A stretch of DNA of 64,000 bases from Candidatus Microgenomates bacterium (GCA_025451885.1 JANWJL010000034.1:13149-77148), one strand, 5' to 3'; counted from the first letter of the stretch, positions 25,684 through 29,029 are shown. Numbers and translations are program-made. The notes: a model not told the origin generated them from the sequence alone.

Positions 25684-27339
25684 TTAATTCCATAAAGTCT
25701 CGTCATTGAGCGTTCTGTTAACTCTTTCATTTTTCGGATTTAACTCTGCTGCCTTTAGCAGATACTCCCTTGCCTTTACTCTATCTTTCTTTTCATAGTA
25801 AATAGAACCTAAGTTAAAATATAACTCCGACACTGCAAAAACATACCGATCAGATTGCTCCGGAACTCTTTTAATCGCTTCTTCTGTATAGTAGATGGCT
25901 TTGTCATAGGATTTTTTTGCATAATAAACAACGGCAATGTTTTGATACGGTTCCCATATTGTAGGGTCAAGCGCTACTGCTTTTTCTAATGCCGGCAGGG
26001 CTCTGTCAAAATCATTTGTTTTCAAAGCTGTTGAGCCAAGGTTTGCATAAGATTTTGGATTTGCTGAATTTAGCTTGATTGAAAGCTCATACTCTTTGCG
26101 TGCGTTTATTAAATCACCGCTCTCTTCGTATACTACGCCGAGACTGTAATGACTCTGATAATAGTCCGGATATGAGTTGATGGTAGCCTGCCATAAACTT
26201 AGTTCGTTTTTCCAATCCAAATTCCTTACTATGGTTCTTGACATAAGCAAAAAAAGGAGTGTGAAAAAAATAAACCATCCAAGAATCTCGGTTTTTTTAT
26301 TCTTAACGAGAACATCTAAACCATAACCAAAAAGAAAGATAAGTCCCAGACTTCCGAAATAGACGTATCGTTCCGCCACAACCCAAAAGAGATTGAGAGG
26401 TGAGAAAGTAAACATTATTCCGATTACAAAAAGAGATATAAAGAAAAGAATAAGTCTGTTTTTAAAAAAAGAATAGATGGCCAATCCAAGCAGGGCAATA
26501 TTTCCCACCACATTCACTGCAAAAGTACTAACGCCTAGAGGAAAGTTAGGATGATAAATGGAAAGTTTAATAGGCCAAAAAATTAACGCCATATATGAAA
26601 AGATTGAATAAGGAACTAGTACGAATACGTTGTAGACAAGAGGTGTTGAATTAGCATCCTGTCGCATATCTAATATCCGTGCACCGATCTGCGGAAAATA
26701 CGAAAGAATGGCGAAAATTGAAACAAATCCAAAAAAAGGTATTATCTTCAACCAATTTTTTTTTAGATCTCCCAGGAAGATCTCATATGATAAAACCACC
26801 AGAGGAAACACGCTTGCTTTAGTAGAAGTGAATAATGCCAGTAAAAAAAATAGAAGCGATAAAAAGTAAAGTTTTTTCTTTTTAGAGGAAATTATATATA
26901 GATACAGTGAGCAGATCAAAAAAAAACTGTAAATCACGTGAGGGCCGCCTGAAACCCAACTGACGGATTCTACAAGAACCGGATGAACTGCAAACAACGC
27001 AGAAGTGAGGAATGCAGTGGTCCTATTTGAAAGTCTCGAAACAAGAACATAGATCATCCAAACGGTTCCTATATGAAATAGGATGTTCACAACGCGAAAC
27101 ATTGTTGCATTGGGACCAAATAGATTAATCGTGAAAAAATATAAGAGAGGCTGTATAAACGATAGTTTGTAATCTGCAATCATCGATATTGAATGCAGTC
27201 GGGGATTATTTATAGATGTAGCATCATCAACAACTAAAGCATTCGGTAAAGAATTAATGTACGCAATAATCACCAATAATCCGAGAATTAAAAAAGTAAT
27301 AGTCCTATTGCGCAATACTATCTTAGATATTGTTTTCAT
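25684..27339 (-). CDS. TMTC-like GT-C membrane glycosyltransferase with C-terminal TPR repeats, paralogue A
   Basis: 551 aa. First-loop motif 'NALVVDDATSINNPRL', ~10 TM helices, and a C-terminal ~190 aa of TPR-like repeats ('YYSLGVVYEESGDLINARKEYELSIKLNSANPKSYANLG...'). Confidence 0.6.
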   Translation of the reverse strand: MKTISKIVLRNRTITFLILGLLVIIAYINSLPNALVVDDATSINNPRLHSISMIADYKLSFIQPLLYFFTINLFGPNATMFRVVNILFHIGTVWMIYVLVSRLSNRTTAFLTSALFAVHPVLVESVSWVSGGPHVIYSFFLICSLYLYIISSKKKKLYFLSLLFFLLALFTSTKASVFPLVVLSYEIFLGDLKKNWLKIIPFFGFVSIFAILSYFPQIGARILDMRQDANSTPLVYNVFVLVPYSIFSYMALIFWPIKLSIYHPNFPLGVSTFAVNVVGNIALLGLAIYSFFKNRLILFFISLFVIGIMFTFSPLNLFWVVAERYVYFGSLGLIFLFGYGLDVLVKNKKTEILGWFIFFTLLFLLMSRTIVRNLDWKNELSLWQATINSYPDYYQSHYSLGVVYEESGDLINARKEYELSIKLNSANPKSYANLGSTALKTNDFDRALPALEKAVALDPTIWEPYQNIAVVYYAKKSYDKAIYYTEEAIKRVPEQSDRYVFAVSELYFNLGSIYYEKKDRVKAREYLLKAAELNPKNERVNRTLNDETLWN

Positions 27340-27344
27340 CGAAG

Positions 27345-27356
27345 ATTCTTAAGAAT
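27345..27356. repeat. perfect 12-bp palindrome ATTCTTAAGAAT between the tandem TMTC-like paralogues
   Basis: Read directly. It lies 6 nt upstream of start codon 27339 and 27 nt downstream of the upstream paralogue's stop. Confidence 0.6.
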
Positions 27357-27382
27357 AATAATCTTTATCTAGTAATTCAACT

Positions 27383-29029
27383 TTATCTCCAGAGAGATTT
27401 GTCATTCAGGATCTGCTGCGTTTTCTCATTTGTGGGATTAAACTTTGCTGATTCCTGAAAATATTTTAGCGAGCTTGCCTTGTCATCAGCCAGATAATAA
27501 ATAGAGCCCAGATTGAAATAAAGTTCCGAGACAGAAAAAACATACGCATCCGATTGTCTAGGAATTCTTTTTATCGCTTCTTCTGTATAGTAAGTCGCCT
27601 TATCATATTGTTTTTTTTCAAAATAGACGACAGCTACATTTTGATAAGGCTCAAAAAGTGAAGAGTTCAGCTTTATTGCCTGCTCAGAAGCTTTGAGAGA
27701 GTCGTCAAACTTTTTCTGCTTTAATAATACTGAGCCTAAATTTATAAATGCCTTTGGATTATTCGGATATAATTGGATTGAACGTTCATATTCATTTCTT
27801 GCCTTATTTAGATCTCCTTCTTCCTCGTAGACAACTCCCAGACTGTAATAACCCTGATGGAATTCCGGAAAGGACTTAACGGTTGAAAGCCAAAGCGTTT
27901 TTTCATTTTTTAAGTCAGCATTTCTTACTATTGTCCTTGCTGAGAAGGCGATCATTATTAAAATAAACAATACCCAACCAAGAATCTCTGTTTTTTGTTT
28001 TTTTATCAATAGACTGAGCAGGTATGCGACAAGAAACATTATGCCGATTGTTCCAAAATATACATACCTCTCGGCGACTATCCAAAAAAGATTAATCGGT
28101 AGAAATGTAAACGAAATGCTGATTAGGAAAAAACTGAGCCAGAAGAAAATTGCTTTCTTTTTAATGAACGTATATATTAAACCTCCAAGAAATCCAATGC
28201 TTGCCAGTATTCGTAAAAAAAACTCCAATGGCTGTAGTGGAAGATTTGGATGATAGATTGATAATGTTGACGGCCAAAAAATGAGCTGCAGATATGAGCT
28301 TACAGAATAAGGTAATAGAATCAAAGGATCGTAGGTGATAGGTGTTGAATTGCCATTCTGTTGTATGTCGGCGATCCTGTTACCAATCTGCGGAAAATAG
28401 TACATAGCACTAAAAATTGTTAGGAGTCCAAAAAAAGGAATTAATCTTTTCCAGTTTTTCCGTAAATCTGATAGTGCGAGTTCGTAGCTGAAAAGAATAA
28501 ATGGAAAAATACTGGCTTTTGTTGAGATAAGAAGCGCGAGAAGAAAAAATAGTATAGAAAAACCGTATCTTTTTTTTGAGGACGTATAAAACCAGAGCGA
28601 ACAAAGCAAGAAAAAACTGAATATCACATGGCCCCCTCCCGAAATCCATGCGACTGATTCCGAAAGTACAGGGTGGACTGCAAACATGAGTGCAGTAAGA
28701 TAGCCAACCTTTCTATTTGAGAATTTAGTAATGAGAAGAAAGACAAGCCAGACGGTGGCTGTATGAAAAAGGATGTTGACCATCCGAAACATTGGCGGAC
28801 TGGGACCGAATAGTTTGATCGTAATGAAATAAAACAAAGGTTGAATAAATGAGAAGGGGTATTCGGTGATAAAGGAAAAAGTCTGAAGCCGTGGGTTATT
28901 AAATGTGAGTGCGTCATCAACGATAAAAGAATTTCCCAAGGAATTGAAATAAACAGCAAATACTATGAGAAAAAACAGGAGTAATGCCACCCATTTATCC
29001 TTAAGGCGTTCTCGTATGAAAGTTTCCAT
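27383..29029 (-). CDS. TMTC-like GT-C membrane glycosyltransferase with C-terminal TPR repeats, paralogue B
   Basis: 548 aa, collinear with paralogue A: 'NSFIVDDALTFNNPRL', the same TM layout, and shared blocks such as 'YYTEEAIKR.P.QSD.YVF.VSELYFNLGSIYY'. Confidence 0.6.
   Translation of the reverse strand: METFIRERLKDKWVALLLFFLIVFAVYFNSLGNSFIVDDALTFNNPRLQTFSFITEYPFSFIQPLFYFITIKLFGPSPPMFRMVNILFHTATVWLVFLLITKFSNRKVGYLTALMFAVHPVLSESVAWISGGGHVIFSFFLLCSLWFYTSSKKRYGFSILFFLLALLISTKASIFPFILFSYELALSDLRKNWKRLIPFFGLLTIFSAMYYFPQIGNRIADIQQNGNSTPITYDPLILLPYSVSSYLQLIFWPSTLSIYHPNLPLQPLEFFLRILASIGFLGGLIYTFIKKKAIFFWLSFFLISISFTFLPINLFWIVAERYVYFGTIGIMFLVAYLLSLLIKKQKTEILGWVLFILIMIAFSARTIVRNADLKNEKTLWLSTVKSFPEFHQGYYSLGVVYEEEGDLNKARNEYERSIQLYPNNPKAFINLGSVLLKQKKFDDSLKASEQAIKLNSSLFEPYQNVAVVYFEKKQYDKATYYTEEAIKRIPRQSDAYVFSVSELYFNLGSIYYLADDKASSLKYFQESAKFNPTNEKTQQILNDKSLWR

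Follow-up and report, generated by a model that had tools for sequence, protein, structure and literature searches.

Here we analysed a tandem pair of genes on contig C34 of a Candidatus Microgenomates bacterium. They are part of a 64,000-nucleotide stretch of DNA which is referred to as the window (GCA_025451885.1 JANWJL010000034.1:13149-77148; positions are counted from its first letter). The host genome comprises 0.85 Mb in 36 contigs and is ~90% complete. Both genes are on the minus strand. The upstream gene, paralogue B (copy B; 27383..29029), is an open reading frame (ORF) for 548 aa, the downstream one, paralogue A (copy A; 25684..27339), for 551 aa. In each protein a membrane domain which resembles the GT-C domain of the TMTC glycosyltransferases (residues 1 to ~375, 26215-27339, in copy A; residues 1 to ~372, 27914-29029, in copy B) is joined to a C-terminal tetratricopeptide repeat (TPR) domain (25687-26214 and 27386-27913, respectively). 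The original prediction, made from the DNA, had described two adjacent same-strand genes which are collinear over their full length and share motifs after the first transmembrane helix (TM1) and in the TPR part. This was confirmed, far beyond chance. BLASTP aligned the copies from residue 1 to the end with 305 of 551 positions identical (55%), 75% positives and 3 gap positions, and the motifs after TM1 (VVDDATSINNPRL and IVDDALTFNNPRL) and in the TPR part (YYTEEAIKRVPEQSDRYVFAVSELYFNLGSIYY and YYTEEAIKRIPRQSDAYVFSVSELYFNLGSIYY) are present in both copies.

The paralogues are separated by a spacer of 43 nt (27340..27382, minus strand) in which no terminator-like site was found. The best promoter-like site, TTTAGA-18-TATAAT with 10/12 matches, is located just upstream of paralogue B (29035..29064, minus strand); the scan was a consensus pattern match only and returned 17 sites versus 12.3 expected. 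Thus, co-transcription of B, then A, is plausible. The spacer holds a perfect 12-bp palindrome, ATTCTTAAGAAT (27345-27356), 6 nt upstream of the copy A ATG. At its 3'-end copy A converges with a gene for a radical SAM enzyme. The stop codons are 10 nt apart (25674-25683) and no terminator-like structure was found between them.

The membrane domain and its relationship to TMTCs

In Pfam, PMT_2 (PF13231) was the only match in the membrane domain. Copy A scored 29.3-30.3 bits, above the gathering cut-off of 26.1 bits, and copy B 20.4-21.5 bits, below it. An NCBIfam search of the pair gave no family-specific match, only generic TPR matches far below the cut-offs. Sequence and profile searches of the PDB with the membrane domain returned nothing meaningful; no solved structure of a close relative and no TMTC membrane-domain structure were detected. 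Because Pfam was marginal and the PDB searches were empty for this domain, we used the published alignment of the TMTC1-4 N-domains as a reference (Additional file 1 in Eisenhaber et al., 2021; PMC7801869). A hidden Markov model (HMM) of the membrane domain of the bacterial family matched 8/8 human and fly TMTC N-domains with E-values from 4e-26 to 3e-13 (Z=1e6). ArnT 5EZM, which is contained in the same Additional file 1, was not matched. A global hhalign alignment of the family profile with the TMTC1-4 N-domains had a probability of 100% and an E-value of 3.8e-39 over 366 aligned columns. It extended from before TM1 to the C-terminal limit of the published alignment, a conserved Arg-Asn pair at the end of TM11. 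This pair is shared with TMTC2, TMTC3 and fly TMTC1 and presumably continues as 'RN.DW' in TMTC3. Further blocks common to the family and the TMTCs in the published alignment are 'G.NP..F(R/H)..N..(F/L)H' in TM2 and 'FAVHP...E' in TM3 and the second external loop (EL2). A shortened loop was aligned with the DUF1736 region (NP...Y249...P256..L259); it ends with Y262-H263 where TMTCs have DW.

For TMTCs, seven ligand-site motifs, M1-M7, were defined by Eisenhaber et al. (2021). We mapped these through the hhalign alignment onto 51 family members. M1 (DD) and M7 (ERxxY) are invariant (51/51), as is Y249-x6-P256 (51/51). In M4 (KE[T/Q]) most family members have S-E-K (Glu in 35/51), copies A and B have S-T-K (T173). 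The Glu at the position of T173 is present in TMTCs and was modelled as a metal/phosphate ligand (PMC7801869). The second Pro of M6 is found in 43/51 family members; copies A and B have F310. T173 and F310 each occur in 2/51 aligned sequences, i.e. in copies A and B. The changes common to both copies therefore predate the duplication and do not mark a single degenerate copy.

The full-length AlphaFold (AF2) model of copy A had a pLDDT of 93.5 and a pTM of 0.91. With this model Foldseek returned TPR proteins only. Because these swamped the list, a membrane-only AF2 model was built using the window and locus DNA references (pLDDT 90.3, pTM 0.92). Now, the PDB matches with a probability of ~1 were exclusively GT-C enzymes (TMq 0.45-0.57), i.e. 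STT3/OST, ArnT, AglB, PglB, ALG12/9/3, AftA, EmbC, DPY19 and Pmt4. MFS and SLC transporters reached a TM-score of ~0.15 and a probability of ~0.1 or less. By this model, and with PMT_2 at or near threshold, the membrane domain is a GT-C fold, as had been proposed. A fold other than GT-C, which would contradict the original prediction, did not emerge. Taken together, profiles and models largely support that the bacterial family is a genuine TMTC homologue with TMTC architecture and catalytic core.

Topology and invariant residues

Both AF2 models, full-length and membrane-only, have 11 TM helices. Thus, the predicted multi-span membrane domain stands, with 11 in place of about ten helices. Using the AF2 helix boundaries, we counted 10 Lys/Arg in 30 putative cytoplasmic-loop residues versus 6 in 132 external ones. 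Because of the positive-inside rule and the odd number of TMs, the N-terminus is predicted to be cytoplasmic, and the DD loop and the TPR domain to be outside of the cell. This agrees with the extracytoplasmic TPR domain of the original prediction; for a cytoplasmic location of DD loop and TPR domain, which was considered as well, the charge rule predicts the opposite. TMTCs are described with the same topology, i.e. N-terminus inside, 11 TMs and lumenal TPRs (PMC7801869).

The presumed catalytic acid is contained in the DD motif (M1), D38-D39, in the first external loop (EL1). The codons are at 27223..27228 in copy A and 28913..28918 in copy B (minus strand), and the alignment columns are identical. 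D38-D39 is located 8 residues after TM1 on the side opposite to the Lys/Arg-rich N-terminus. It is invariant in 51/51 family members and in 60/60 sequences and is aligned with D52-D53 of TMTC1. The 60-sequence alignment has 19 invariant columns, and both copies keep all of them. Eighteen are in external loops or outer helix ends, namely N29, D38, D39, H119, P120, E124, W128, Y249, L252, P256, P314, E323, R324, Y325, Y327, R368, R372 and N373; the sole one elsewhere is H89 in TM2. In the predicted topology an extracytoplasmic active site would be expected to leave such a pattern.

TPR domain, divergence of the copies and duplication

The TPR-rich C-terminal domain of the original prediction was strongly significant. 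TPR_2 matched with an E-value of 1e-25 in 4 stretches, and TPR_1/2/8 together matched residues 393-537. The AF2 model has ~5 repeats, i.e. ten helices and a cap.

The pairwise alignment was used to locate where the copies diverge. Identity is 62% in the external loops, 51% in the TM helices, 40% in the cytoplasmic parts and 57% in the TPR domain. The external catalytic loops are best conserved (EL2 77%, EL5 70%). Within the TPR domain, the helices at 478-516 are 85-93% identical, the last helix (520-533) is 14% identical. This helix, the N-terminus with TM1, and TM8 are the least conserved stretches. The pattern fits two active enzymes of like chemistry. From the retained duplicate two acceptor or donor specificities had been suggested. 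The divergence would agree with, perhaps, a shift in partner or acceptor preference but is no demonstration of two specificities.

In a maximum-likelihood tree of 88 bacterial membrane domains, rooted with TMTCs, copies A and B group as sisters (SH-aLRT 99), and their clade also contains the Roizmanbacteria loci L015 and L017. L017 is from a genome of the same genus (G001), which has a single close copy at the matching genomic position. Because the copies are sisters and the same-genus genome is single-copy, the pair is a recent, lineage-specific tandem duplication. Tandem copies were present in 5/79 other loci, two of them triplets, and are separate events on the tree. An ancient duplication common to other tandem pairs was rejected since the G003/L062 pair and the L061/L081 triplets are placed separately. 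When the window was compared with syntenic relatives, identity was 60-88% for the neighbouring genes and 40-50% for the TMTC-like gene. Thus, the TMTC-like gene evolves unusually fast. For a surface-glycan gene that evolves this fast, a tandem duplicate as such is nothing out of the ordinary.

A conserved cassette in a glycan island

Five genes on the plus strand run towards copy A. The first encodes a Wzx-like (Polysacc_synt) flippase (20558..21853; weak Pfam match), which is syntenic in L015 and L017 with 53% identity. It is followed by a 264-aa GT2 of the DPMS/GtrB/ArnC/PgfS type (21823..22617), a candidate polyprenyl-phosphate-sugar synthase for the donor. Its whole catalytic domain matched Pyrococcus DPMS 5MLZ (3e-10), GtrB 5EKP (8e-10) and ArnC (2e-7) in the PDB, and there were weak NCBIfam matches to PgfS, ArnC, AglJ and PpgS; in close relatives it is syntenic and 77-79% identical. 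Next are a 344-aa GT2 by Pfam with a hydrophobic C-terminal membrane segment visible in the translation (22622..23656), and a small 4Fe-4S ferredoxin (23649..23897; Fer4_13, Fer4_15; syntenic with 76-83% identity in relatives). The last gene, convergent with copy A, encodes a B12-binding radical SAM enzyme (23916..25673; Pfam Radical_SAM and B12-binding). It is weakly HpnJ-like (TIGR03471, 1.2e-40, below cut-off) and 85-88% identical in close relatives.

The order flippase-GT2-GT2-ferredoxin-radical SAM with a convergent single TMTC-like gene is conserved in L015 and L017, and the block from the 264-aa GT2 to the TMTC-like gene also in L016 and L019. We then counted neighbours within ±6 kb in ~80 loci, many of them truncated. 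The radical SAM gene adjoins the TMTC-like gene in 41/79 loci by tblastn and in 45/80 by clustering. GT2s accompany it in 59/80 loci and the flippase cluster in 26/80; homologues of the 264-aa GT2 were found in 24/79 and of the 344-aa GT2 in 43/79 loci. The rate gap was striking: across 41 loci the median identity of the radical SAM enzyme was 66% versus ~35% for the adjacent TMTC-like gene.

Around the cassette extends a glycan island of ~40 kb, which encodes nucleotide-sugar enzymes, three Wzx-like flippases and, in several genes, GT2/GT4 enzymes. The window contains two more triads of flippase, small GT2 and PMT_2-type GT-C (45256-50283 and 53281-56730) and a pair of GT2 and DUF2079 (59061-61462). 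Judged from weak family matches of the parts, the co-location of GT2, flippase and GT-C suggests a three-component extracytoplasmic glycosylation logic. A PseB-like dehydratase, a DegT aminotransferase and a formyltransferase similar to the ArnA N-domain are encoded at 34042-36967 (the latter with E 1.6e-37 to the ArnA model, below cut-off). Together with the ArnC-like GT2 (21823-22617) and the GT-Cs these make up an Arn-like parts list, which predicts a formamido sugar.

Family and distribution

The closest named homologues are from Candidatus Roizmanbacteria, other Patescibacteria (Levy-, Shapiro-, Woyke-, Moran-, Beckwith- and Gottesmanbacteria, WWE3, Saccharibacteria) and Omnitrophota. The family is very abundant. 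Among 1.84 billion representatives of clusters at 50% identity, the membrane-domain profile retrieved 7,760 clusters at E<=1e-30 and 67,320 at E<=1e-10. In public annotation homologues usually are a 'tetratricopeptide repeat protein', at JGI sometimes a 'protein O-mannosyl-transferase'. An additional N-terminal segment, cytoplasmic and ~70-80 residues long, with the pattern MSL..QK.YIKKN...S..EIA..L....EV..YLKK.W..EKY.KF is found in many homologues (P0007-P0120 and many of P0121-P0257); copies A and B are without it. Some of the loci L018-L092 (TPA 'binchicken'/SRP-derived records of metagenome-assembled genomes) are labelled as Gammaproteobacteria, Bdellovibrionales, Planctomycetia or a Bathyarchaeia archaeon. 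These labels look unreliable because the members nest inside Patescibacteria or Omnitrophota clades. In its own genome the pair is the only representative of the family. In total, 16 PMT_2-type GT-C matches were counted in the genome, which is very dense for 0.85 Mb; the other 14 fail an E-value of 1e-20 against the family profile.

The original prediction also called for a search for Ser/Thr-rich secreted or pilin-like proteins as candidate acceptors. The genome has at least nine prepilin-type genes on contigs C17 and C10, away from the locus of the pair on C34. Pro/Thr/Ser-rich linkers are contained in ~15 exported proteins, of which one is pilin-like. Eight prepilin-type genes are clustered at C17:442-8415. 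At C17:6480-7295 a 271-aa pilin-like protein has a Ser/Thr/Pro-rich C-terminal tail (19 Ser/Thr in 40 residues). Among the neighbours in the 80 loci no pilin-like cluster was found.

Discussion

TMTC enzymes have been recognised only recently in animals. The above data indicate that the pair belongs to a bacterial family with the same architecture, and we propose the following model. Both genes would encode active TMTC-like GT-C glycosyltransferases, which start in the cytoplasm and span the membrane with 11 helices. The active site would be formed from external loops by D38-D39 (EL1), H119/E124 (EL2), Y262-H263 (in the DUF1736-like EL4) and E323-R324-Y327 (EL5), and the TPR domain with ~5 repeats would be displayed outside of the cytoplasmic membrane. 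The pair would constitute the transferase arm of a Gtr/Arn/Pgf-like three-component extracytoplasmic glycosylation cassette. There, the DPMS-like GT2 would load a sugar onto polyprenyl phosphate at the inner membrane face; plausibly, the second GT2 and the B12 radical SAM enzyme, served by the ferredoxin, may extend or remodel the lipid-linked sugar; the Wzx-like flippase would move it outward; and the TMTC-like enzyme would transfer it to an acceptor chosen by the TPR domain. By analogy with TMTC, TMEM260 and TfpW, the acceptor most likely would be Ser/Thr of exported proteins, such as pilins or proteins which have Pro/Thr/Ser-rich linkers. Homology, fold, conserved residues, gene linkage and the history of the duplication were observed; the topology is deduced from the model and the charge rule, and donor class, acceptor class and all enzymatic steps are inferred. 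We consider the model as a whole fairly probable; the chances of a protein acceptor, the most likely case, we put somewhat above even.

Several points weigh against this model. Pfam DUF1736 (PF08409) did not match either copy even at E<=10. Human TMTCs match DUF1736, the TM7-TM8 loop, at E<1e-30 with the exception of the canonical TMTC1 entry Q8IUR5 (3e-19; PMC7801869). Of the ligand-site motifs, M2 (SHKSYRP) is absent, with the region ~14 residues shorter and unconserved, M3 (RxD) is replaced by G...Y/H, and M5 (DW) by Y262 (50/51) and H263 (42/51). Thus, of the TMTC-like reading in the original prediction homology, architecture and M1/M7 hold up, the DUF1736 match and M2/M3/M5 do not; similarly, the HMM search it called for retrieved TPR and PMT_2 (above cut-off for copy A only), not DUF1736. 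M2 and M3 were modelled as mannose contacts by Eisenhaber et al. (PMC7801869). Since they are missing, a mannose donor should not be assumed. Because T173 and F310 replace the family-typical Glu and Pro, the chemistry of copies A and B may even differ from that of their own family. On the donor side, the PDB matches of the 264-aa GT2 are weak and its NCBIfam matches all below cut-offs. Flippases of the Wzx type more typically go with polyprenyl-PP-oligosaccharides than with polyprenyl-P-monosaccharides. In polysaccharide export, too, TPR domains serve as scaffolds, which makes a glycan acceptor conceivable. When 879 ORFs from 80 loci were clustered de novo, only sugar-pathway genes and no linked acceptor gene emerged. 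Because of 16 PMT_2-type GT-Cs in a 0.85 Mb genome an acceptor cannot be assigned to the pair. Finally, the bacterial family is uncharacterised.

A serious rival leaves enzyme class and cassette unchanged and replaces the protein acceptor by a cell-envelope glycan or glycolipid, e.g. a secondary cell-wall polymer, a lipoglycan or an S-layer-associated polysaccharide (cf. GtrC-type enzymes, ArnT, YfhO, Emb/Aft). The TPR domain then would be a scaffold or a glycan-handling module. The surroundings suit such an acceptor: the ~40-kb island is rich in nucleotide-sugar enzymes, GT2/GT4 genes and flippases, the 80 loci are without a linked protein acceptor, and the TPR matches include the polysaccharide-system proteins PrsT, PgaA and VpsP, all far below cut-offs. 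Classically, three-component systems modify polysaccharides after polymerisation (PMC11127046). However, the characterised GT-C enzymes with TPRs all act on proteins, TMTC on cadherins, TMEM260 on IPT domains and TfpW on type IV pilin. The closest sequence relatives among those tested are TMTCs and not ArnT, and the genome does encode pilins and many exported proteins with Pro/Thr/Ser-rich linkers. We regard a glycan or lipid acceptor as possible, though rather unlikely.

Considerably less probable are two explanations which concern the enzymes themselves. One or both copies might be non-catalytic after the duplication and serve as the regulatory half of a heterodimer, as in some PMT/POMT pairs, or as a TPR scaffold. 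This would agree with the loss in both copies of the Glu usual at M4 (T173) and the Pro at 310, with the fast evolution (40-50% identity compared with 60-88% for the neighbours) and with the subthreshold PMT_2 score of copy B. PMT-family enzymes are described as acting as dimers (PMC7759382, PMC12705809). Yet all 19 invariant columns, including DD, H119/P120/E124, ERYxY and R368/R372, are kept in both copies, the external catalytic loops are best conserved between them (62%; EL2 77%, EL5 70%), and T173 and F310 are common to both, hence older than the duplication. This makes a non-catalytic copy improbable. Less probable still, the membrane domain could be an O-antigen-ligase/Wzy-like polymerase or a transporter fused to TPRs. 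Weak PMT_2 scores, a faint EpsG match of copy B (E 0.31) and PDB sequence searches without a match could be taken to point in this direction. Against it, Foldseek matches with a probability of ~1 were GT-C only, the scores of MFS/SLC transporters were negligible (TM-score ~0.15, probability ~0.1 or less), hhalign to TMTC gave E 3.8e-39, Pfam had no Wzy_C or O-antigen-ligase match at E<=10, and no family member deviates from the GT-C hallmark, an acidic DD pair in EL1. On this fold and profile evidence we rejected the ligase and transporter alternatives as highly improbable.

How does the preferred model, active TMTC-like enzymes with a TPR-selected acceptor, compare with known systems? Eukaryotic TMTC1-4 (CAZy GT105) are protein O-mannosyltransferases, which use Dol-P-Man and modify cadherin-type domains. 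Like these, the pair has an 11-TM GT-C membrane domain followed by an external (there lumenal) TPR domain, collinear homology over the whole membrane domain, invariant DD in EL1 and ERxxY in EL5, and an 'NP...Y...P..L' core in the EL4 loop. Unlike in TMTC1-4, the bacterial EL1 is ~14 residues shorter and without NDFWG and SHKSYRP, and the bacterial proteins have ~5 TPRs in ~550 aa; TMTCs have ~740-915 aa and more TPR repeats. Further, in the bacteria the sugar must be carried by a polyprenol instead of dolichol, and cadherins are ruled out as acceptors. In the literature which we found, prokaryotic TMTC relatives are mentioned only in passing and were not studied (PMC7801869).

TfpW from P. 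aeruginosa is a GT-C pilin O-arabinofuranosyltransferase of 646 aa with a type IV pilin as acceptor. Its N-terminus is in the cytoplasm, 11 TMs are predicted, periplasmic loop 1 contains an essential DDx motif, and the TPR domain at the C-terminus is periplasmic (10.1101/2020.04.19.049825). Compared by TfpW's description only, the architecture agrees point by point, including Y-x6-P in loop 4 (here Y249...P256). Therefore, the statement in the original prediction that bacterial members are essentially uncharacterised applies to the present family, but TfpW is a characterised bacterial GT-C enzyme with TPRs. Differences are that tfpW is directly downstream of pilA and here the pilin genes are on other contigs, and that the donor of TfpW is polyprenyl-P-D-Araf from DprE-type genes, none of which were seen here.

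TMEM260 (GT117) is an O-mannosyltransferase for IPT domains with an 11-TM GT-C module. Its lumenal domain consists in part of TPRs and is assumed to recruit folded beta-sandwich domains; the catalytic Asp is in the first lumenal loop, and the protein is described as lacking significant sequence similarity to TMTCs (PMC10214176). By description, the GT-C module with TPRs outside and the Asp in the first loop are alike. At 40553-45215 of the window a 736-aa membrane protein without a Pfam or NCBIfam match overlaps an 820-aa protein, 13.7 kb downstream of the pair, whose only match is a C-terminal IPT/TIG domain. Because IPT domains are acceptors of TMEM260, an animal GT-C enzyme with TPRs, the 820-aa protein is a speculative acceptor candidate; the link to the pair is proximity only, and the gene adjoins other GT-C genes.

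In three-component systems a polyprenyl-P-sugar is made inside, flipped and transferred outside by a GT-C enzyme (PMC11127046). The combination of GT2 synthase, flippase and GT-C, which occurs three times in the window, is like GtrA/B/C, ArnC/E/F/T, streptococcal PgfS/PgfM and the Citrobacter GT136 system. Unlike there, the flippase is Wzx/MOP-like and not GtrA/SMR/MATE, the cassette is extended by another GT2, a ferredoxin and a B12 radical SAM enzyme, and the GT-C carries TPRs where others have a CBM or no extra domain. With ArnT (GT83) and fungal or actinobacterial PMT (GT39), both of the Pfam PMT_2 clan, the pair shares the GT-C_A-type fold, and ArnT 5F15 was among the top structural matches (TMq 0.49). 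It differs from them in that the MIR domain of PMT and the ArnT-type periplasmic domain are absent and the family HMM misses ArnT.

The pair is a duplicated member of a large known bacterial family. The annotation is solid, the kind of system is not new; the interest is moderate, useful for annotation and unsurprising to specialists. Added here are a quantitative TMTC homology, a motif-by-motif test in which the putative mannose-binding motifs were found to be lost, the linkage to the cassette and the dating of the duplication. A bolder reading, which we consider doubtful, would be that the family in Patescibacteria and Omnitrophota is the prokaryotic counterpart, sister or source, of the TMTCs and carries out an undescribed bacterial protein O-glycosylation, with the lipid-linked sugar first remodelled by the ferredoxin/B12 radical SAM pair. 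Fast evolution and repeated duplication would then diversify glycosylated surface proteins, and copies A and B would serve different acceptors via the divergent last TPR.

A very abundant family of bacteria with ultra-small genomes is genuinely TMTC-like. It keeps the DD and ERxxY cores and lacks the motifs proposed to hold mannose, and the conserved cassette around the TMTC-like gene supplies a plausible donor pathway. With ~550 aa, these proteins are a compact bacterial model with which the TMTC fold could be studied structurally and biochemically. They also offer a handle on surface glycosylation in bacteria of the candidate phyla radiation (CPR), whose cell surfaces mediate their episymbiotic lifestyle.

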